From Escherichia phage JMPW1, in the sequence record NC_041874.1: a stretch of DNA of 49,628 nucleotides. The stretch is one strand, 5' to 3'. Below are positions 36,341 to 47,666 of this stretch, piece after piece; position 1 is the stretch's first letter, and each line of letters begins with the position of its first letter. Both the position numbers and the translations under genes were made by a program. The notes under the pieces were generated by a model that searched no databases, was not told where the DNA came from, and saw nothing but the letters and a program-made list of their open reading frames with translations.

Positions 36341-36793
36341 TTAACTAAAAATGCTATTGGTCGTTCCGATATCTTCCTTCTTCACGACGCGCATAAATTT
36401 CTTGTTCTTGCATCGCTTCTCAAGGCACTTGCCGTTACCGTCAAACTTCAGGTCGAATCGCAACCATGCGGCACGAAATCCTTTGCACCCCTGTCGGCGG
36501 TAAGCGCGATGCGCAGCTTCAGCGCCTTGCCATGAAATCATATTTCGATCTTTCCAGCCTTGCACCGTCTGATTGCTAACTTTTAGAGCCTTTGCGCAGG
36601 CCGCAGGGCCGCCGTAATATTCGATAAGAGCATCAAGTCGCGCTCGCAGTCCGGCGCGTGTTTCTTCTTTATGAATATAGAACCCGCAACGCTGTCGAGG
36701 CTTTTTATCTTTACCGCGCCGTGTTCCGTTGTTACCATTGATGTGACGTTTATCGATTTTACCAGTTGATTCTGCGATACGTTGAATACTCAT
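36341..36793 (-). CDS. putative helix-turn-helix DNA-binding regulator
   Basis: HTH-like AACAKALKVSNQTVQGWKD; basic protein in divergent replication control region. Confidence 0.4.
   Translation of the reverse strand: MSIQRIAESTGKIDKRHINGNNGTRRGKDKKPRQRCGFYIHKEETRAGLRARLDALIEYYGGPAACAKALKVSNQTVQGWKDRNMISWQGAEAAHRAYRRQGCKGFRAAWLRFDLKFDGNGKCLEKRCKNKKFMRVVKKEDIGTTNSIFS
36342..36358 (-). promoter_or_regulatory. Box, minus orientation, upstream of primase
   Basis: Plus-strand TTAACTAAAAATGCTAT; overlaps stop of regulator gene. Confidence 0.4.
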
Positions 36794-36805
36794 CTTGATT
36801 CTCCT

Positions 36806-36861
36806 ATAGCACTTTTTGCTAAAAACGTTTACTTTATGCCGTGTATTATAGCGTAAACGTT
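36806..36861 (+). promoter_or_regulatory. Promoter cassette for helicase operon: box + IR AACGTTTAC/GTAAACGTT
   Basis: Box 36806-36825; IR arms 36824-36832 and 36853-36861 enclosing TATTAT. Confidence 0.55.
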
Positions 36862-36886
36862 ACAACGATTCAAAGGATTAATAGCC

Positions 36887-38905
36887 GTGACAATGAACAT
36901 TAAAAAACAGATTGCGTTACTTGGAGAGGACTACATAAAGCGAACTCAGGAGCGATTCACTGTAGGTGAGGTAGTTCCTTATCCGTATCAGGTTGTTGCT
37001 TACGCCGAGATCGCGAAGCGCTTGTCAAATTATGAGCACCCATTCTTCGTTAAAGCGTCTGTATCCGCAGGCAAGACAATTATTTTCGCTATGGTGGCAA
37101 AGCAGTGTCAGAAAATGGGCTTAAAAATGCTTGTCCTGGCTCGACAGGGTGAGATTGTCGATCAGGATAGCGAAGAGATCGACAACTTCGGGGTAACGAA
37201 CTCCATCTTCTCAGCATCGCTTGGAATCAAGTCCTGCTACTTCCCGATCGTGGTTGGCTCTGAGGGTACGGTTGCAAATGGCCTCGACAATGAGTTGGCT
37301 GATTTTGTCCCGCATGTAATTGGGATCGACGAATGTCACCAGGTGGATTGGGAAGACCTTGCGCAAGCCATCGAGGGTAAGGAAACAATGGAACAGATGA
37401 GGGGCGAGAAAGGGAAAATTATCATGGACGGAGATATTCCCCTGATTGGTAATGATGGAAAACCTTTGCTTGGAACTAAGCGTAGTCAGTACACGATCGT
37501 AATCATGGAAATGATGCGGCGCTGTAAAAAGGTTCACGGGCACGATCTTAGAATATTCGGCATGACGGGATCTGAATTTCGTGGCGTAGTTCCTATTCTG
37601 GTAGAGAATCCGAAAGCATTGGGATTCTGGCGTGAGCGAGTAACTGATATCGACACAAACTATCTGATTGAGTTCGGCTCTGTCGTTCCGACTATATTCG
37701 GATCAACAGACGGAGTTCATTACGATCTGGATAAGTTCAAGGCGTCTAGCGAGGACGGAGTGCAGGACTTTACAGAGAAAGACATGAAGGCTATGGAAGA
37801 TGAGATCCTTCATGATAAATCTCTGACTCAGCGAATCATGCAAATGGTCGCCAAAAAGGCAGAAGAACGCAATGCGGTCTTGATTACATGTGCTGGTGTG
37901 CGCCACTGCAAAGAGGCAGCGGCAGCACTTCCTCCGGGAAGCACCTATGCAATTATTACTGGCGACACAGACAACAAATCGCGCAAGAAGATTCTGGACG
38001 ATGTAAGGGCTGGGAAAATTAAATACACCTTTCAGGTTATGGCGCTCACTACTGGCGTTAACGTTCCAAATTGGGATTTCAGTGTCATACTCCGCAAGAT
38101 AGGGTCGCTCACACTATTGATTCAACTTTTGGGTAGGGGTATGCGTCTGCTTAAATCCTGGCAGGTTGCTGAGGGAATGGTTAAGCAGGACCATCTGGTA
38201 TGGGATTTCGCAGGTACGATGGATGAGTTGGGTCAGCTTTATTTCGATCCGATACTTGAGCAGGCGCAATTCCAAAATCGTTTTGAAAACGGCAAAGATC
38301 CGAAAACATGTCCGAAATGCGGTTGCGTAAATAGCTTCTATGCTCGACGATGCGTTAATGTCATTGATGGTGAACGTTGCGATCATTTCTGGACTTCTCA
38401 AATTTGTGAGGACCAGGTTGACGAGCGCACCGGAAAAATCCTTGTTAAAGGATGCGGTGCAGAGAATGACGTTGTGGCCCGAGTCTGTCGCTGTTGCGAT
38501 GTTTCTCTTGTTGATCCTAACCTTAAGTTATCCGGTAAGGCGTACACTAAGAATGACTGGTACGAGGTCAAGAATTTTGAAGTTACGTTAACCAAAAACC
38601 AAAAGGGTGTGATATACAAATACACACTTATTAATGATGAGGGTGACGAGTTCAAGGCGTATGAAAAATTCTTCCCTGAGTCAGACTCTAAGATTTGCGG
38701 TACGCTATGGAAAACGAAAGGAGTATTACCTCACGTATCAGATCCTAAAATGCGCCGCTACTTTATCGGAATGAAGAACGCCATCAAGATCGTGCAGTAC
38801 GCACATCATATTGCTCACCCGGTGCGCGTAACTCATCGTCGCAACCAGAAGAAAGAAGATATTATCTCACGCAAAGACTTCGGTATGGAGGATATCCCGG
38901 AATGA
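36887..38905 (+). CDS. SF2 DNA helicase (DEAD/DEAH-box type) with C-terminal Cys-rich zinc-binding region
   Basis: Walker A-like SAGKT, DECH box IGIDECHQ, multiple CxxC pairs. Confidence 0.75.
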   Translation: MTMNIKKQIALLGEDYIKRTQERFTVGEVVPYPYQVVAYAEIAKRLSNYEHPFFVKASVSAGKTIIFAMVAKQCQKMGLKMLVLARQGEIVDQDSEEIDNFGVTNSIFSASLGIKSCYFPIVVGSEGTVANGLDNELADFVPHVIGIDECHQVDWEDLAQAIEGKETMEQMRGEKGKIIMDGDIPLIGNDGKPLLGTKRSQYTIVIMEMMRRCKKVHGHDLRIFGMTGSEFRGVVPILVENPKALGFWRERVTDIDTNYLIEFGSVVPTIFGSTDGVHYDLDKFKASSEDGVQDFTEKDMKAMEDEILHDKSLTQRIMQMVAKKAEERNAVLITCAGVRHCKEAAAALPPGSTYAIITGDTDNKSRKKILDDVRAGKIKYTFQVMALTTGVNVPNWDFSVILRKIGSLTLLIQLLGRGMRLLKSWQVAEGMVKQDHLVWDFAGTMDELGQLYFDPILEQAQFQNRFENGKDPKTCPKCGCVNSFYARRCVNVIDGERCDHFWTSQICEDQVDERTGKILVKGCGAENDVVARVCRCCDVSLVDPNLKLSGKAYTKNDWYEVKNFEVTLTKNQKGVIYKYTLINDEGDEFKAYEKFFPESDSKICGTLWKTKGVLPHVSDPKMRRYFIGMKNAIKIVQYAHHIAHPVRVTHRRNQKKEDIISRKDFGMEDIPE

Positions 38906-39318
38906 TTACAGACAAAGGTGATTATTTAGAGTTTTACGAGCGAGATCCCAGCGACACTCGAAAGGAGGACGCTCATCAGGTGGATTGTGTGTCCTGGCTG
39001 AAATACAATTTCCCTCACCTTCTATTTTGGCACACTGTCAATGAAGGTGAAAAAACAATCACATCAGCGCTCAGGGATGAGCAGGCCGGATTACTTAAAG
39101 GAGTGTCGGACTTCGTTATCCTGATTGGTGTTAACTCAAGATACCCGTTTGCAGCAATCGAACTTAAGCGGGTTAATAAGTCAGGCAAAGGAAAGGCGTC
39201 ACCAGTCAGCGACAAGCAAAGGGAATTTCTCAGAAAGGTCATGGAGCGTGGCGGCTTCTCTGCCGTCGCATACGGATTTGAGCAATTCAAGATCGCAATT
39301 TACGAAATGATGAAATAG
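38902..39318 (+). CDS. VRR-NUC domain nuclease
   Basis: D...ELK signature VSDFVILIGVN...AIELK. Confidence 0.55.
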   Translation: MITDKGDYLEFYERDPSDTRKEDAHQVDCVSWLKYNFPHLLFWHTVNEGEKTITSALRDEQAGLLKGVSDFVILIGVNSRYPFAAIELKRVNKSGKGKASPVSDKQREFLRKVMERGGFSAVAYGFEQFKIAIYEMMK

Positions 39319-39370
39319 CACTTTTTGTTAAAACTGCCGGAATGGAATCTGGCATTATTATCTCACCAAC
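39315..39370 (+). promoter_or_regulatory. Promoter cassette: box + IR
   Basis: Box ATAGCACTTTTTGTTAAAAC 39315-39334; IR about 39335-39354; TAG stop of VRR-NUC gene inside box. Confidence 0.5.
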
Positions 39371-39385
39371 ACTAGAGGACTAAAA

Positions 39386-40099
39386 ATGAAAGACTTTAAT
39401 GATATCGAAACTATCGACTTTGCTGAAACTGGTTGCTCATTCACTCGCGAAGCAATAGCGTTTGGCGGTTATTATCAGGCACTAAAAACTCCAACATGCA
39501 AAGAGATTTCAGGCCGTCGATATAAGGGAACCAATACGCCGGATGTTGTTCGTGATTTATGGTCAACCCCGCGCGAGGTTATTGCGTACCTTGAGGGGCG
39601 TTATGGAAAATACGATCTCGACGCTGCGGCAAGCGAAGAAAATAAAGTTTGCGAGAAGTTTTATTCTCAGGAAACAAACTGCTTAAAACGTTGGTGGGGT
39701 AAAAACAAGCATGTATGGTTAAACCCTCCTTATAGTCGACCTGATATATTCGTCAAGAAGGCGATCGAGCAAATGGAGCACAATAATCAGATTGATATTC
39801 TGTTGCCTGCCGATAATTCTACAGCGTGGTTTACTGAGGCGCGACAGCACGCGGCTGAAATCATCTGGATTGAAGCTGACTTGACTGAGGATATTGACGG
39901 CAACAAGTATGCTCGATCCGGACGACTGGCGTTTATATCCGGTGAAACCGGAAAGGCCGTAGATGGTAATAACAAAGGTTCGGTAATTTTTATCATGCGC
40001 GAACTTAAAGATGGTGAGACGCAGCAAACTCACTATATCCCAATCACAAGCATTTTCCCTTCGGTGAAAAACAAGCGCGCAAAAGTGAGGAAAGTATGA
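39386..40099 (+). CDS. dam: DNA N6-adenine methyltransferase (Dam-like)
   Basis: Catalytic NPPY motif (WLNPPYSRPD); size 237 aa. Confidence 0.75.
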   Translation: MKDFNDIETIDFAETGCSFTREAIAFGGYYQALKTPTCKEISGRRYKGTNTPDVVRDLWSTPREVIAYLEGRYGKYDLDAAASEENKVCEKFYSQETNCLKRWWGKNKHVWLNPPYSRPDIFVKKAIEQMEHNNQIDILLPADNSTAWFTEARQHAAEIIWIEADLTEDIDGNKYARSGRLAFISGETGKAVDGNNKGSVIFIMRELKDGETQQTHYIPITSIFPSVKNKRAKVRKV

Positions 40100-40347
40100 T
40101 GAACGAGAAAATGATTCCGGTTAAGTTAACTGATCAAGGTTTATGGCTGCTTTATCGAGCTACCTGCTGCGAAATTATGGAGCGAAACGGATTGACTCAG
40201 GATGTTATTGGTTGCGATCTGTGGGAGTTCACTAGTTCTCTTGATATGTCTTTCGATGAGATAAAAAATGAATACATAGAGAATTGGCCTTCAATCATAC
40301 AGAAAGACGTGGAAGAACTTAAAGCTGATACAATCGTACAGCACTAA
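40096..40347 (+). CDS. hypothetical protein (83 aa)
   Basis: Overlapping start; stop TAA embedded in next box. Confidence 0.5.
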   Translation: MMNEKMIPVKLTDQGLWLLYRATCCEIMERNGLTQDVIGCDLWEFTSSLDMSFDEIKNEYIENWPSIIQKDVEELKADTIVQH

Positions 40348-40381
40348 TTGCTAAAAATACCCGACGAAAGTCGGGTATAGT
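40338..40381 (+). promoter_or_regulatory. Promoter cassette: box + perfect hairpin ACCCGAC-GAAA-GTCGGGT + -10 TATAGT
   Basis: Box 40338-40357; IR 40359-40376; -10 40376-40381. Confidence 0.6.
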
Positions 40382-40413
40382 TATTTCATAGAAACGAAAT
40401 GAGGAATCAGAAG

Positions 40414-40623
40414 ATGGCACGCATTAATGCAAACTTTTTCAATATCGCTCAACAGTCCGCAAAAATGGCTGTTCATATCACTGACAAGAAAGGCGGCAAC
40501 TTTGATTGGGATATTGCTATGAACTTCCTAAAAATGGCTTATTACCTCTGCTCAGTCAAAGAGGTTGAGTGTTTTATTGAAAGCGTGGAGAAACTAACTA
40601 ATGCTGATAAAAAAACAAGGTAA
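40414..40623 (+). CDS. hypothetical protein (69 aa)
   Basis: Start at ATG after RBS GAGGAATCAGAAG. Confidence 0.5.
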   Translation: MARINANFFNIAQQSAKMAVHITDKKGGNFDWDIAMNFLKMAYYLCSVKEVECFIESVEKLTNADKKTR

Positions 40624-40873
40624 ACGCGAGGTTTGGGAACACGCGAAGGAATGTGGGATCTCAGACGATATAGCGCTAATAGCGAAATATTTCGATATAA
40701 AGGATGTTAGCATTATCTCAAACGGCAAGATTTCATTTATGGAAGATATGCCGAGAAAAATGCATAGAGTTCCAGCAACTCCATCACTTGAGTTTTACCG
40801 CGAAGAGGGAAAGAGAATTGAGCGAGAAAGAAAATCCACAAAAAACGGCAAGTCTTCCCGGCTTAAATATTAA
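40601..40873 (+). CDS. hypothetical protein (90 aa)
   Basis: ORF; overlaps next ORF in another frame. Confidence 0.4.
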   Translation: MLIKKQGKREVWEHAKECGISDDIALIAKYFDIKDVSIISNGKISFMEDMPRKMHRVPATPSLEFYREEGKRIERERKSTKNGKSSRLKY

Positions 40874-41105
40874 TGCGGACGAATACCAGGCAATATGGAT
40901 CGGTAAAAAGCAGGTTAAGCAAATTCATTTCTCTGACTGGTTGCCACCTGACTTTGTTAACGTGCTTTGCACTATCGGTATTGAGCAGGAGTTGCATATA
41001 GGTTACTACTCACCTGGCCGAAACAGTATGATGCTTGAGGTTGACGGAAAACTCGTTGAGTTTAAATCTTCAGATCTAGGATTCTGGTTGAAGGCTGTGG
41101 CATGA
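40704..41105 (+). CDS. hypothetical protein (start uncertain; alternative TTG 40818 after RBS AGAGGGA)
   Basis: Long ORF overlapping previous; ATG 40704 or TTG 40818 both possible. Confidence 0.35.
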   Translation: MLALSQTARFHLWKICREKCIEFQQLHHLSFTAKRERELSEKENPQKTASLPGLNINADEYQAIWIGKKQVKQIHFSDWLPPDFVNVLCTIGIEQELHIGYYSPGRNSMMLEVDGKLVEFKSSDLGFWLKAVA

Positions 41106-41183
41106 AACTTTATTTTGCTGTAGTATTAACACCGCTAATTTCATTTTCAGTAATGTATTTCATTATCATGTAAGGATTAAAAT

Positions 41184-42335
41184 ATGTCACAAGCTAAAAT
41201 CACTACCGAGCAACTTGTCGAAGAGCGCATGAACGGCCTTACACTTCGCGAGATCGCGGAAAAGTACGGTATGCATATTCGAACTGTTGAGGCTCGACAC
41301 GCAAAATTGGCAAAAGAAGGCCACTTTCACGGCAATGAGCATGTTGCTAAAAACGTTCCTGAAGGCTTCATGGTAAAAGGCACATCAACAATGATTCGCG
41401 GTGATGGGACTGAGGTCGTGCGATGGGTTAAGACCGATCAGGACCGTGAGAAGATTGCAGCTATGATGGAAGCTGCACGCATTGCATTTTGTGAAGACTT
41501 GCCGCGAGCAAAGCCAACTGAGCTGCTCACATCGCAAGGTCTTACAACCTCTATTGGAAAGCTGGCACTATACCCGGTGTTCGATCTTCACATTGGCGCG
41601 CTTGCTCATAAGCATGAATGTGGAGAGAACTACTCTACCGACGTAGCGGAAAAAGTGCTTAGCGACTTCTTTAATTACGCGATCGATATTGCTCCGAACG
41701 CAGAGAAGGCCGTTCTTTTAATCGGCGGTGACTTCCTTCACTCGGACGGTCTTGATGCTGTTACCCCGGCAAGTGGTCACGTTCTGGATCAGGATTCACG
41801 ATATGCAAAATTGGTGCATGTAGCTATTAGATCTGTTCGTCGCGCTATCGACAAAATGCTACTGAAACACAAAGAAGTCGAGGTCCAGGTTATCGAAGGG
41901 AACCACGATCAGTCTGGGATGATTTGGCTGCGCGCTGCAATGTCGGCATATTATGAAGACGAGCCGCGAGTATTCGTTGACGTTAGTCCTATGATTCTGC
42001 ATAAGACTCGTTGGGGAAATACCTTGTTGGGATACACTCACGGGCACACTATGAAAAAGGCAGAGACTCGACTCGCAGCTATGGCAGCAGATTTCCGCGC
42101 AGATTTTGGTGAAAGCAAATACGTGTACACGCATAGCGGTCACTGGCATCACCAGACAATCACTGAGCACTCACTCGGTATTGATGAGGTTCACGGCCAG
42201 TTAGGCGCGAAAGACGCATACGCAGCACGAGGAGGGTGGCGCTCGTATCGCCAGGCGGCTGTAATTGTTTACGATAAGCAATTTGGGGAAATCGGTCGTT
42301 TCATCTATCGTCCAGAAATGACAGGATCGCACTAA
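41184..42335 (+). CDS. HTH-fused calcineurin-like metallophosphoesterase
   Basis: N-terminal HTH-like LTLREIAEKYGMHIRTVEARH; phosphoesterase motifs FDLH, GGDFLHSD, GNHD, GHWHH. Confidence 0.65.
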   Translation: MSQAKITTEQLVEERMNGLTLREIAEKYGMHIRTVEARHAKLAKEGHFHGNEHVAKNVPEGFMVKGTSTMIRGDGTEVVRWVKTDQDREKIAAMMEAARIAFCEDLPRAKPTELLTSQGLTTSIGKLALYPVFDLHIGALAHKHECGENYSTDVAEKVLSDFFNYAIDIAPNAEKAVLLIGGDFLHSDGLDAVTPASGHVLDQDSRYAKLVHVAIRSVRRAIDKMLLKHKEVEVQVIEGNHDQSGMIWLRAAMSAYYEDEPRVFVDVSPMILHKTRWGNTLLGYTHGHTMKKAETRLAAMAADFRADFGESKYVYTHSGHWHHQTITEHSLGIDEVHGQLGAKDAYAARGGWRSYRQAAVIVYDKQFGEIGRFIYRPEMTGSH

Positions 42336-42369
42336 TTGATAAAAACTCCCGAAGGGATTCGGGCATAGT
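42326..42369 (+). promoter_or_regulatory. Promoter cassette: box variant + IR CCCGAA/TTCGGG + -10 CATAGT
   Basis: Stop TAA of upstream gene inside box; IR 42348-42363. Confidence 0.5.
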
Positions 42370-42398
42370 AACCACATCGAAAACAAAGAGGCTATATC

Positions 42399-42575
42399 AT
42401 GAAGCTAGTTAAGTGCATCCGAAATGATTCCAAAACGCTTCCATTCCGCGTAAATCAGATCTATAGTGTTGGTTATGATTTCGGTGGTGGATTATTTGAG
42501 GTTTACGACGGGAGAGGCTCGGCAATCCATGTTCCTCTGAACGGTCACTACCTGGAATTTATTGAGATAGATTAA
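42399..42575 (+). CDS. small paralog-family protein (58 aa)
   Basis: ATG 42399 after RBS AAGAGG; MKLVKCIRND...VGYDFGGG...VYDGRG matches dispersed family. Confidence 0.5.
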   Translation: MKLVKCIRNDSKTLPFRVNQIYSVGYDFGGGLFEVYDGRGSAIHVPLNGHYLEFIEID

Positions 42576-42693
42576 CAATAGCATTCATCACCTTACAGGC
42601 TGGCATGATTTAGATGCTGGCCTTTTTGCGTTGTGTCAAATAAATTTGAAGGTTAAAATCAACTCACTTGTTCAAAAAATATATGGTGAGATT

Positions 42694-42909
42694 ATGAAAG
42701 AATTTTTAACCGCAGCTACGTCTAGCACGGGCGGGGCTTCATTAGTGGGGGCGGCGACCGGGCAGCTTTATATTGCTGGCGCTACATTCATTTGCTTTCT
42801 GCTTTTTGGTGCTTGGGGCGCATACTGGAAGTATCGTGATAGCAAGGCGATTCAGGAAGCGTTAAACGATGGCGATCTAAATAAGGCACTTAAGATCAGG
42901 GGGAGATAA
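42694..42909 (+). CDS. holin (pinholin-like, two TMDs)
   Basis: 71 aa; Gly/Ala-rich TMD1, hydrophobic TMD2, charged C-terminus; directly upstream of endolysin. Confidence 0.55.
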
Positions 42910-43397
42910 TGAGCTTAAAAAATAACGTTATAGGCGCATCGATCGGGGCTGCTTTGACGTTGACGCCTACCCTGCTGGAACGAATCGAAGGGATAGAATA
43001 CGAGGTGTATTACGATATAGCCGGAGTCCCTACCGTATGCAGCGGAATAACCGGGCCGGACGTCATACCTGGTAAGAAATACACTAAGCGAGAATGCGAT
43101 GCATTGCTGATAAAACATATCGGCGTCGCTCAGCGATACGTTGACAAAAAGGTGAATGTTGATATTCCGGTAACGATGCGCGCGTCACTGTACAGCTTCA
43201 CTTTCAACGTCGGTACTGGCGCGTTCGGATCTTCTACAATGCTTAAGCTAATAAATCAGAGTAAGCACAAGGAAGCGTGCAATCAGTTATGGCGATGGGT
43301 ATACTACTACAACCCAAAAACCAAAAAGCGCGAAGTGTCTAGAGGACTAAAGAACCGACGCGCTGAAGAATACGCGTATTGCGTTAAGGAATTATGA
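42909..43397 (+). CDS. endolysin, lysozyme with N-terminal SAR-like signal-anchor
   Basis: [19 protein letters not shown] and VDIP...RASLYSF.FNVGTG.F resemble phage P21 R lysozyme (from memory); hydrophobic Gly/Ala-rich N-terminus. Confidence 0.8.
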
Positions 43398-43798
43398 TGA
43401 AACTGAAGAAAACGTGCATTGCGATTGCAGTGGCTGTTGGCGTTATTTCCCTATCCGGTTGTTCGACGGCATCTGCCCTGAGCGGTTTAATCGGATCTAA
43501 ACCGGAAGTTACAGCACAAATCGGAGAGGAGAACACAAAGCAATTAGCAGGAGTAACCGCAAAATCCGAAGATAAGCGAGATGTTAAAGTTGAGAAGTCC
43601 AATGTAGGAAAGATTGACTCTTCCTTGAAGAAGTCAATTGAAGTGTCAACCATTAAGGCTAACACGGTTAACGCTGAAAGCATCACAGTAACAAAACCGG
43701 AAAACTGGTACGATGCTATCGTTGGCTGGATTCTCGTTTTTATCGGTCTATTGCTGGTTTATTTTTCACTTCGTAAGGACGAAAAAAAGGAGGCTTAG
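43394..43798 (+). CDS. unimolecular spanin (u-spanin)
   Basis: N-terminal lipoprotein signal with lipobox LSGC plus C-terminal TM segment; overlaps endolysin stop. Confidence 0.6.
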
Positions 43799-43812
43799 CC
43801 TCCTTTGTTATT
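43783..43812. terminator. bidirectional intrinsic terminator between convergent blocks
   Basis: GGAGGCT-T-AGCCTCC stem flanked by A7 and T-rich tracts. Confidence 0.6.
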
Positions 43813-43919
43813 TGTACCTTTTTACGTTAAGTAGTAACTCCCCATCCTGGTCGCAAAGATTATGCTCGCTTTCGTTACTGGCCCTCATTGAAGTGAGCAA
43901 CAGACTCAACAACCCTTGC

Positions 43920-44327
43920 TCAAATTCTTCTTTCGTAAGCTGGAGCCTTGCGCACAATTCGACGTTCCGATCTATCAATGTTTCTACGTTCTCCAAACAA
44001 ATCCTCATCACTCATCTCTCCAATGTGCATCATTTCCCACGTATACCGATTGTTGTAGCCATCAATACACATCAGCTTCATCATTACCGGGCGCTTAATC
44101 TTTCCCTTGCACCAGTAAAACCCATCCCTGCAATCAAGATAACCCTCAGTTACACAGCGTGAGCAAAACTCCTTAGATAGCGCGCTTGTAAATTCACGGC
44201 GAGTCATTCCTGCGGCCTTAGCAAATCGCTCACTTTCCTTGTGGGCGTATATAAATTTCGCTATGTGCTGTCGAGTGTATTTGTCGTAACCTTCGCAGAA
44301 CCTGAACAGATCTAAAAGAAGAAGCAT
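43920..44327 (-). CDS. Cys-rich hypothetical protein (135 aa), possibly zinc-binding
   Basis: Multiple Cys (CEGY, CSRC, C..C); last gene of minus-strand operon. Confidence 0.45.
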   Translation of the reverse strand: MLLLLDLFRFCEGYDKYTRQHIAKFIYAHKESERFAKAAGMTRREFTSALSKEFCSRCVTEGYLDCRDGFYWCKGKIKRPVMMKLMCIDGYNNRYTWEMMHIGEMSDEDLFGERRNIDRSERRIVRKAPAYERRI

Positions 44328-44331
44328 ATTA

Positions 44332-45900
44332 TTAACCCATCAGTCGAGGGTTGATGAAAACAATATCATCAATCCGGCAAGTGTAGTTCATCTCTTCGAG
44401 CGTGATCAGCAGGCTGTCGATTCGCTCAGATACTTTCTGTTGACCGTTGAACGGCGTAACGTTCCGGCACTTTGCAACGATGCTATGAATAGGTGCGCGG
44501 CCTTTGTTCTTCTTCGCGATCTCAGTGATAACATCAATCAGCTTACGAGATTCAGCCTCATCACCTGCATACCCGGCAGCGCTGGCAGATGACAGGTAAG
44601 TCCTGGAAAGCTCATTGAAGATCATGATCGCTTCCTGCATTGTTTCAAGGTCAATCTCACGATTAGATCGGTTCGGTGATTCACCCTCCCAATTCTTGAT
44701 CGTGTGAAGAACTGAAGCAATGCGCAAAGCGTGCTTATCGAACTTACCGAGATGACCGCGTAGCATTGAGTGAGAGTATTTGCCCCCGGCGGCGAAATCA
44801 GGCTCCATCGCCTGGCGAGCAAGGTTTAATTCACGCATAGCGTTACGGCTTACAGAGAGAACGACGTTGTCCTCCTTCATAATGTTGTGCACGAGTCTGT
44901 AATATTTGCTAACCAGTCCGCGATCTACTTCCTTATACAGCGCATCACCATTTTCATCGCAAAGAATACGAGTACCTAAAAGCGGTTCCTCTCGAACCAG
45001 GAGGAAACGCTCAGATACACCGATACCGCGCTGGCCTGCGTCCATGATACCCTTGATTGTTTCATCCTGCGCAATGACGCAGATCGAACCGACCGGGCAA
45101 AGAGATAAGTTGTTGTCCTGATTTGAACGCGCGACCTCCATATGGTTTTTATCCCACGCCTTAAGAATAAGCTCGCTGTTTGATTTCTTATCAGAACCGC
45201 CATAAGTCAGACCAAGCAATGTATTGATTGCCGTTGCTTCATCAGATATTACGGAAAAGTGGCCTTGAACAGCCGCAACTTTCGCAAGACCTTCAGGTGT
45301 AGGATCTGATACCGCGAAAACAATATCAGCCATCTTCTTGATCTTTTCTTCCAGTTTTTCCTTGTCTTCGTACAGAGCCGCCGTCGTGTTACCCTTTGGA
45401 TCGTTTTTTATTTCTTTCTCGACCTGACGTAGCTGACTGGTTAAACGTATGCGCTCCTTTTTGCGCTCTTCATTCAGTCGCTGAATCTCCGCACGCATAG
45501 GTGTAATCGCCGCTGAGTTAATAGCGGACTTACCTGTTGATGGTGGCTGGCTGATTACCATGTAAAGCGCGGTCGGCTGTTCTTCGCCGTGATATTGCAC
45601 CCAAAACTTCCCGAGCATAGCGGCTGAGATGCACCCAATGAAATGAGCGTACGCAGACGAAACAGGGAACTGTACAGACTCAGCCTTTGCCTTTGCATAT
45701 TCGAATACCAGGTTATCGCCACCTAACGAAATCAGCGGGAACTTATCGTTTCCACTGTTGATATCGATCGGATCTTGCCAAAACGAAACTGAATCCCCAT
45801 AGCTGTTTTCACGAATTGCGATCGACACCGGATTAACTCCAGTGCTATTTGCGATCTCAATAATCTGTTGGTAATTCAATTTTGGCTTAATATTAAACAT
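44332..45900 (-). CDS. large hypothetical protein with Walker A-like PPSTGKS motif (about 522 aa)
   Basis: Start moved to ATG 45900 (RBS AAGGAG); ORF-track start 45963 lies inside the box. Confidence 0.5.
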   Translation of the reverse strand: MFNIKPKLNYQQIIEIANSTGVNPVSIAIRENSYGDSVSFWQDPIDINSGNDKFPLISLGGDNLVFEYAKAKAESVQFPVSSAYAHFIGCISAAMLGKFWVQYHGEEQPTALYMVISQPPSTGKSAINSAAITPMRAEIQRLNEERKKERIRLTSQLRQVEKEIKNDPKGNTTAALYEDKEKLEEKIKKMADIVFAVSDPTPEGLAKVAAVQGHFSVISDEATAINTLLGLTYGGSDKKSNSELILKAWDKNHMEVARSNQDNNLSLCPVGSICVIAQDETIKGIMDAGQRGIGVSERFLLVREEPLLGTRILCDENGDALYKEVDRGLVSKYYRLVHNIMKEDNVVLSVSRNAMRELNLARQAMEPDFAAGGKYSHSMLRGHLGKFDKHALRIASVLHTIKNWEGESPNRSNREIDLETMQEAIMIFNELSRTYLSSASAAGYAGDEAESRKLIDVITEIAKKNKGRAPIHSIVAKCRNVTPFNGQQKVSERIDSLLITLEEMNYTCRIDDIVFINPRLMG

Positions 45901-45920
45901 CACAATAAACTCCTTAGTTG

Positions 45921-45974
45921 ACGGTGTGAATGATACACCGCCAATGGTACACGCGTTTTGCAAAAAGTGCTATT
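45921..45974 (-). promoter_or_regulatory. Promoter cassette, minus strand: box + IR CGGTGT/ACACCG
   Basis: Minus-strand box ATAGCACTTTTTGCAAAA (plus 45957-45974); hairpin plus 45921-45945. Confidence 0.5.
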
Positions 45975-47128: not shown

Positions 47129-47452
47129 TCATTTTTTACCGTCCCACGTTTGATATGCCGTAACCAGGTTAATGCTGTGGTCGAACTCGTCAACGCTAAG
47201 CGATCCGATTCTAACAAGCTCTTTGTCGTGCTTAATATCAATCATCCGGCTATATGGATGGCCTGGCACATACTTGAACAGTCGTTTGCTGTCGGCAATG
47301 TCTGCGTTGATTCCGTAGAATCGGCCTACCGCCGCCTTAACGCGCTCCATGATGTTTTTTTCGTGGATTGCCGCCGCGTTATTTAGTGCCGCAACCGTGC
47401 TTCCGTTAATCTTCGGTGACTTCGTTGTGATTTTGTAAGTGTGGTTCATCAT
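47129..47452 (-). CDS. hypothetical protein (107 aa)
   Basis: Start trimmed to ATG 47452 after RBS AGGGGGA. Confidence 0.45.
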   Translation of the reverse strand: MMNHTYKITTKSPKINGSTVAALNNAAAIHEKNIMERVKAAVGRFYGINADIADSKRLFKYVPGHPYSRMIDIKHDKELVRIGSLSVDEFDHSINLVTAYQTWDGKK

Positions 47453-47465
47453 TCCCCCTAACCAG

Positions 47466-47666
47466 TCAGGATAGCTTTCGCGCTTCATCAATGATAACAG
47501 GCTCAAGGCGTTCAAGTCGAACGCGGAACGAGTTCATAAATCCTTCGTTGTTCTTCAGTAGTTCGAATGCGTCTGTAGCTTCAATGGCGCTATTCCCCAT
47601 GTAGGCAATTACTTTTTTCTGAGTCTTACGTGAGATCGCCACTACGCGGTAAATATTATCACTCAT
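47466..47666 (-). CDS. hypothetical protein (66 aa)
   Basis: Start trimmed to ATG downstream of upstream gene stop. Confidence 0.4.
   Translation of the reverse strand: MSDNIYRVVAISRKTQKKVIAYMGNSAIEATDAFELLKNNEGFMNSFRVRLERLEPVIIDEARKLS

Follow-up and report, generated by a model that had tools for sequence, protein, structure and literature searches.

The window analysed here is the whole 49,628-nucleotide sequence of Escherichia phage JMPW1 (NC_041874.1), in which a gene at 41184..42335 encodes a metallophosphoesterase preceded by a helix-turn-helix (HTH) segment. The window contains terminase, portal, capsid, tail, and lysis genes together with DNA-metabolism genes for a RecE-like exonuclease VIII, Erf, SSB, a primase, two helicases, a VRR-NUC protein, and Dam; because this T1-like gene set is complete, the sequence is a whole phage genome (Drexlerviridae, Tunavirus). 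Over about 8 kb around the gene, identity is 100% with Escherichia phage phi2013 and 92-99.9% with many Tunavirus genomes. The list of open reading frames (ORFs) confirms the exact boundaries of the gene, which starts with ATG and specifies 383 aa plus a stop, and phage vB_EcoS_SH2 has a protein of the same sequence (100% identity). In profile searches the product matches PHROG 704, "DNA repair exonuclease", along almost the entire profile (E = 1.9e-156, 522 bits, residues 4-380 on positions 2-389 of 390), which marks it as a full-length member, indistinguishable from the family in its three-part architecture.

The gene is an ordinary one, drawn from a known and widely annotated phage family. 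Both the family and its likely enzyme class already stand in public annotation; the family name comes from computation. Homologues are present in 2016 phage records of the collection searched, and an exhaustive HMMER search recovered 4614 clusters (50% identity) at E <= 1e-3; in the 150 best of these the median length is 392 aa. They range over siphoviruses, myoviruses, podoviruses, and prophages, with PHROG 704 proteins known from Drexlerviridae, Jerseyvirus, Jedunavirus, Vibrio, Roseobacter, and other phages, recorded variously as phosphoesterase, metallophosphoesterase, or DNA repair exonuclease. A block of exonuclease, holin, endolysin, and spanin genes is conserved in 508 of 522 Drexlerviridae (PMC13164509), a persistence more readily expected of a core DNA function than of an accessory one. 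A preliminary description of the locus had treated the protein as a fusion. An HTH is indeed joined to a complete, conserved binuclear site, but the HTH-hairpin-phosphoesterase order is how proteins throughout this very large phage family are normally built and not a local event in JMPW1. Several Jerseyvirus, Escherichia, and Klebsiella phage records show homologues that are annotated as two coding sequences (CDSs) or give matches in 2-3 pieces, the N-half and the C-half have families of their own in PHROGs (phrog_20703 and phrog_20762), and an HNH endonuclease gene lies directly downstream of the homologue in Vibrio phage 93E29-1a; frameshifts, sequencing errors, or a homing endonuclease active at the locus may lie behind these cases. 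Papers on phage escape mutants, on daunorubicin sensitivity, and on the Metis defence system contained nothing on the phosphoesterase gene.

The catalytic core retains all five metal-ligand motifs of the calcineurin-like superfamily in canonical order (DxH, GD, GNH[D/E], H, GHxH). The motifs were taken from the sequence, then verified by script, and their conservation was counted in a 67-sequence family alignment with identity down to ~30% (Table 1). Each metal ligand is invariant or nearly so, a degree of conservation far beyond chance, and, the active site being fully conserved among the 67 homologues, the family is selected as an enzyme. The DxH, GNHD, GH, and GHxH motifs had been recognized earlier and stand as described; motif II, previously given as GDxxD, is instead GDxxH (GDFLH), the form found in archaeal and eukaryotic Mre11, with D188 following two residues after H186. 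A family loop, T194-P-x-S-G-H-x-L201-D202-x-D204-x-R206, comes after motif II (T194 and R206 in 65/67 sequences, D202 in 66/67). Outside the motifs, conservation reaches at least 90% at E145, T194, L201, D202, D204, R206, R262, and D344.

An AlphaFold2 model built from the same alignment (pLDDT 93.8, pTM 0.81) resolves the protein into three parts: an HTH (residues 8-44), a beta-hairpin plus helix (62-105), and the phosphoesterase core (123-383). The core is a two-layer beta-sandwich, the fold of the superfamily. Its best fold matches are DNA nucleases, namely DP1 (15.9), Mre11 (14.7), and SbcD (14.6), followed by small phosphodiesterases and LpxH (12-14) and, lower still, PPP protein phosphatases (8.8-9.5). 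This ranking and the GDxxH motif together point to the nuclease branch of the superfamily. Searches with sequence profiles are fainter: the single JMPW1 protein gave sub-threshold matches only in NCBIfam and noise only in a PDB sequence search, and the family profile gave marginal HTH and Mre11 matches in PDB (E = 0.13-0.5 for the Mre11/SbcD similarity).

Comparison with characterised nucleases delimits the resemblance. Like Mre11/SbcD (3qg5 from T. maritima, 7dog from S. aureus, 3dsd from P. furiosus), the JMPW1 protein has a phosphoesterase nuclease domain with a Mre11-type motif II (GDLFH/D). Unlike them, it carries an N-terminal HTH and hairpin, and its chain stops 61 residues past motif V, in residues that form core strands; there is thus no Mre11-type capping domain, and of the 362 residues of T. 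maritima Mre11 only 189 can be aligned. Rad50/SbcC was also not found in PHROG scans of the neighbouring and larger non-structural JMPW1 ORFs, the same scans that detected helicases, primase, exonuclease VIII, Erf, SSB, methylases, and VRR-NUC. The protein is thus not a true Mre11/SbcD, although it is proposed below to work like one. The top-ranked fold match, the 3'-5' proofreading exonuclease DP1 of archaeal PolD (5ihe), shares 12% identity; DP1 identity is ruled out, as the model contains only a two-stranded hairpin and no OB-fold before the core, and there is no DP2 partner. Pseudomonas putida MPE/PdeM (6nvo), a Mn2+-dependent single-stranded DNA endonuclease from an Lhr-ligase operon, is a bacterial repair-operon protein without an HTH, and identity with it is excluded by the score against the PdeM/ligase-associated MPE model TIGR04123 (11.5 bits, cut-off 150, E = 0.15).

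The presence of small phosphodiesterases among the intermediate fold matches bears on a different role, that of an anti-defence phosphodiesterase acting on the second messengers of CBASS, Pycsar, or type III CRISPR (cyclic oligonucleotides) or on other small phosphodiesters. This is very unlikely. A near-universal HTH has no obvious use on small molecules, PADLOC returned no relevant match on JMPW1, and the gene is a core component of Drexlerviridae, fixed among DNA-metabolism genes, unlike variable anti-defence loci.

The N-terminal segment, described at the outset as HTH-like, proves in the model to be a bundle of three helices in which a turn joins helices 2 and 3, and members of the family match many Pfam HTH models (best Sigma70_r4_2, 1.5e-9, and GerE, 2.4e-8), resembling LuxR/GerE, sigma region 4, and resolvase types. 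A hidden Markov model (HMM) of the segment is positive in 121 of 145 full-length representatives. Two without a match whose N-termini were inspected (P0157 and P0158) have a different HTH-like sequence in the same place, suggesting selection for DNA binding as such. A near-universal but exchangeable HTH argues that the enzyme has DNA either as its substrate or as its site of action. The hairpin-helix element that follows is more strongly conserved than the HTH, with a positive HMM match in 134/145 representatives and the top N-terminal motif of the family, VKGTSTLY..DG....QWVKT, in which W81 is invariant; no fold match accounts for it. The resemblance of the HTH to sigma region 4 and LuxR-type domains, and the frequent position of the gene at an early/late boundary (tail genes precede it, or lysis, terminase, or portal genes follow), could point to a protein that is mainly a regulator of transcription or packaging, for example in the switch from replication to late functions, with the phosphoesterase as an accessory. 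That role is highly improbable, for it is the catalytic residues that are invariant, whereas the HTH is the least conserved part of the protein, is sometimes replaced, and is entirely missing from some homologues, such as the 320-aa protein of Campylobacter phage PC5.

Table 1. Features of the HTH-metallophosphoesterase gene of phage JMPW1 and its downstream region; fractions are counts in the family alignment.
Feature	Position	Strand	Basis
HTH-metallophosphoesterase CDS, PHROG 704 member	41184..42335	+	ORF list, phrog_704 profile, vB_EcoS_SH2 identity
Three-helix HTH, residues 8-44 (helices 8-16, 21-28, 32-44)	41205..41315	+	AlphaFold model, family Pfam matches
Family-specific beta-hairpin (62-86) plus helix (88-105)	41367..41498	+	AlphaFold model, conserved motif
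Metallophosphoesterase catalytic core, residues 123-383	41550..42332	+	AlphaFold model
Motif I, D134-L-H136 (DxH)	41583..41591	+	Sequence; D134, H136 invariant 67/67
Motif II, G182-D183-F-L-H186 (GDxxH)	41727..41741	+	G182, D183 67/67; H186 65/67
Motif III, G239-N240-H241-D242 (GNHD)	41898..41909	+	N240, H241 67/67
Motif IV, H286-G287-H288 ("GH" motif)	42039..42047	+	H286 67/67; G287 65/67; H288 58/67
Motif V, G319-H320-W-H322 (GHxH)	42138..42149	+	G319, H322 67/67; H320 65/67
Terminator-like hairpin, 10 bp stem plus T-run	42597..42623	+	Consensus scan, pattern match only

The surroundings of the gene point in the same direction as its fold. In JMPW1 it is the final enzyme gene in an operon that runs rightward, following helicase, VRR-NUC, and Dam genes and three small ORFs, with VRR-NUC four genes upstream. 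The contexts in other phages were drawn from a non-systematic sample of annotated phage records, contig look-ups, and one genome scan. In these, the family gene typically lies at the end of the replication/recombination module, bordering late genes, and none of the 14 other contexts examined yielded a Rad50/SbcC. On one contig (L017) the start of the homologue is overlapped by a PDDEXK_15 nuclease gene, and on another (L016) a FEN-type exonuclease and a primase-helicase precede it in the same operon, with lysis genes facing it. In Jedunavirus it precedes the terminase genes. In Ralstonia phage Reminis (Autographiviridae), endonuclease VII is encoded directly upstream, and a separate T7 gp6-type exonuclease (phrog_107) two genes upstream, and the idea that the homologue replaces that exonuclease in Autographiviridae was rejected on this ground. 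The recurrence of junction- or structure-specific nucleases and recombination genes nearby thus argues for a role in DNA processing.

Reminis also encodes a polynucleotide kinase (PNK) directly downstream of the homologue and an ATP-dependent ligase four genes downstream. In some Drexlerviridae a dNMP kinase or PNK gene directly follows the phosphoesterase gene, PNK being a frequent downstream neighbour where the SH3 gene is absent (PMC13164509). Such arrangements would suit an enzyme of nucleic-acid end healing, a Pnkp-like 2',3'-cyclic phosphodiesterase or 3'-phosphatase that acts with PNK and ligase on cleaved tRNA or nicked DNA. This is nonetheless very unlikely to be its function: no PNK or ligase was detected among the JMPW1 genes scanned, most contexts lack both, and T4-type PNK has its own 3'-phosphatase.

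A lambdoid prophage in a Cellvibrionaceae metagenome-assembled genome carries the homologue in the nin region (L020, 6216-9391), immediately behind NinB/Orf and NinG/Rap and upstream of the terminase genes. The corresponding position in lambda is that of ninI, which encodes a phosphoesterase of an unrelated family, and the arrangement looks like positional replacement of one phosphoesterase type by another. The product of ninI, lambda protein phosphatase (lambda-PPase, PPP family), belongs to the same superfamily, and with the comparable gene position it raises the prospect of a Ser/Thr/Tyr phosphatase with host or phage phosphoproteins as targets. That prospect is decidedly improbable. The PPP signature motifs GDxHG, GDxVDRG (GDxxDRG), and GNHE are absent, which rules out PPP identity, GDFLH and GNHD standing in their place, and a protein substrate would leave the HTH unexplained. 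Of the two activities proposed in the preliminary description, nuclease or protein phosphatase, the first is favoured by fold, GDxxH motif, and neighbours, with the qualification already made that the likeness to Mre11/SbcD is not identity.

The reading we prefer, tentatively and at a little short of an even chance, is that the protein is a stand-alone, Rad50-independent, Mre11/DP1-like DNA nuclease, tethered by its HTH, which processes phage replication and recombination DNA before packaging. DNA as the substrate, the metal, cutting polarity, and the biological role are what we infer here. The enzyme would be a cytoplasmic two-metal phosphodiesterase, probably using Mn2+, that acts on DNA and is held there by the N-terminal HTH and perhaps also by the conserved beta-hairpin. 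The HTH would thereby take over the tethering done in true Mre11 by the capping domain and Rad50. Its most likely work is to trim ends, hairpins, or branched intermediates of the DNA while recombination-dependent replication is under way, ahead of packaging, and it may additionally attack host DNA. Phage T5 A1 and mycobacteriophage A10ZJ24 Gp48 are precedents for DNA-cutting phage metallophosphoesterases that stand alone.

Several observations weigh against this proposal. There is no constant partner gene, and contexts vary: on one metagenomic contig the homologue lies one small gene upstream of the portal gene, and in some marine phages it closes the run of virion structural genes, opposite PolA and DnaB-primase genes. 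The Pfam phosphoesterase models score under their gathering thresholds (PF12850, 16.4 bits with a cut-off of 27; PF00149, 15.5 with 21.5), so the protein cannot be called from sequence profiles alone, and its membership in the calcineurin-like metallophosphoesterase superfamily rests on motifs and fold rather than on Pfam score. The JMPW1 protein itself is likewise below the curated Pfam cut-off for every HTH family, and an HTH of the sigma-region-4 kind could also be used in regulation or in contacts with proteins. The pI is 6.5 overall and 8.2 for the HTH segment, i.e. not basic. Finally, literature searches for biochemical or genetic tests of PHROG 704 found none.

The closest rival assigns the enzyme a different target, its main role being destruction of the host chromosome for nucleotide salvage and/or silencing of host defences, by a nuclease fused to its DNA-binding module, unlike T5 A1, which works with A2. 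We regard this as unlikely, though as a serious contender. Phage T1 degrades host DNA, and the classical T1 gene 2.5, which is needed for this degradation and whose mutants show more frequent generalized transduction, is not known to have a sequence assignment. Nucleotide-salvage genes are occasional neighbours of family members, including dUTPase_2 (L002), a weak DNMK match (L013), deoxyribosyltransferase-like and MazG-like genes, and the dNMP kinase or PNK genes of Drexlerviridae. T5 A1, a stand-alone predicted metallophosphatase, is both needed and sufficient in vivo for the breakdown of host DNA and has been described as resembling double-strand break repair and proofreading nucleases, with Mre11/DP1-like features (bioRxiv 10.64898/2026.04.02.716235). 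A10ZJ24 Gp48, a phosphodiesterase of a cluster A mycobacteriophage, breaks down linear, plasmid, and genomic DNA in vitro, in vivo it degrades the DNA of the host, and its relative Bxb1 gp47 is, according to the title of a study cited in the same work (Savinov et al. 2012), required for phage DNA replication (PMC12287305). Against host destruction as the main role, the family also occurs in the lambdoid prophage described above, within its nin region, and in a Peduoviridae phage, temperate types that usually spare the host chromosome, and the JMPW1 gene closes an early/middle operon rather than being among the first expressed.

The two precedents are, moreover, distant. T5 A1 is a 556-aa pre-early gene product in PHROG 1745 with a separate DNA-binding partner, A2, in which no similarity to the JMPW1 N-terminal domain was found; hhalign aligns A1 with the family over 19 columns around GNHD only (probability 16%). 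The cluster A phosphoesterases (PHROG 221) are likewise small, stand-alone phage proteins, encoded among replication genes (primase, endonuclease VII, DNA polymerase), but they are 255 aa long, lack the HTH and hairpin, and have motif I at residue 10. Bxb1 gp47, which doubles as a recombination directionality factor, aligns with the family over 89 columns (probability 25%). From the hhalign results and PHROG assignments, close homology to either is rejected, the similarity being at superfamily level. An extended motif III, (E/G)-(S/G)-NHD-x2-S-x-WL, is shared by T5 A1 (L019, 1706-3376) and JMPW1 residues 233-251. A more specific form of the host-directed alternative, in which the HTH-phosphoesterase is the T1-type nuclease that degrades the host chromosome, a single-chain counterpart of T5 A1 plus A2 with the HTH and hairpin replacing Rad50, is rather unlikely; the HTH and hairpin might then steer cutting to host rather than phage DNA.

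The placement of the gene just upstream of a lysis cassette, remarked on from the beginning, is correct, but a 58-aa SH3-type gene (phrog_4788, 42399-42575) and a terminator-like hairpin intervene before the holin, endolysin, and spanin genes. The hairpin, which separates the SH3-type and holin genes, is the top-listed (+)-strand site in a scan of 36500-44400 and probably terminates the transcription unit to which the phosphoesterase gene belongs. The same scan found no terminator-like (+)-strand site between the phosphoesterase and SH3-type genes. On this pattern evidence, the SH3-type gene, for which lysis-module membership has been proposed (PMC13164509), would share its transcript with the phosphoesterase gene and not with the lysis genes. 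Since the hairpin intervenes and no signal peptide or membrane segment was seen in the protein sequence, the nearness of the gene to the lysis cassette is a matter of position only. Two further points speak against a functional link to lysis, which is rejected: the protein is hydrophilic and cytoplasmic by sequence, and in other phages the gene does not lie beside lysis genes.

Further details of the region concern its reading frames and transcript ends. The VRR-NUC ATG (38902) overlaps the end of the upstream helicase gene (38905), which suggests translational coupling within the operon that the phosphoesterase gene terminates. The holin ORF at 42631-42909 opens at TTG (92 aa), a reading that would begin only 8 nt past the terminator-like hairpin, and the 71-aa holin of relatives corresponds to 42694-42909. 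Between the end of the spanin gene (+) and convergent leftward genes (43920-44327; helicase, 44332-45963), a perfect 9-bp-stem hairpin at 43786-43806 scores as a terminator on both strands and is a likely bidirectional terminator. Elsewhere in the window, a 128-aa ORF at 47129-47515 (-) matches phrog_10555, an annotation that gives no function; in the T1-like phage SECphi27, a 128-aa protein, likewise annotated with no function, was reported as the sensitivity determinant for Mokosh type I (bioRxiv 10.1101/2022.08.27.505566).

The phosphoesterase is one of the few enzymes common to nearly all T1-like phages. A Rad50-independent, HTH-tethered nuclease, if that is what the gene encodes, would explain how DNA is processed in phages without their own polymerase or a Mre11-Rad50 pair, and this gap would be filled whether the target is phage intermediates or the host chromosome. 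A purely computed annotation would then be corrected. Should the T1-type host nuclease prove the right description, a very widespread class of phage nucleases, Mre11-like and Rad50-independent, would thereby be defined.

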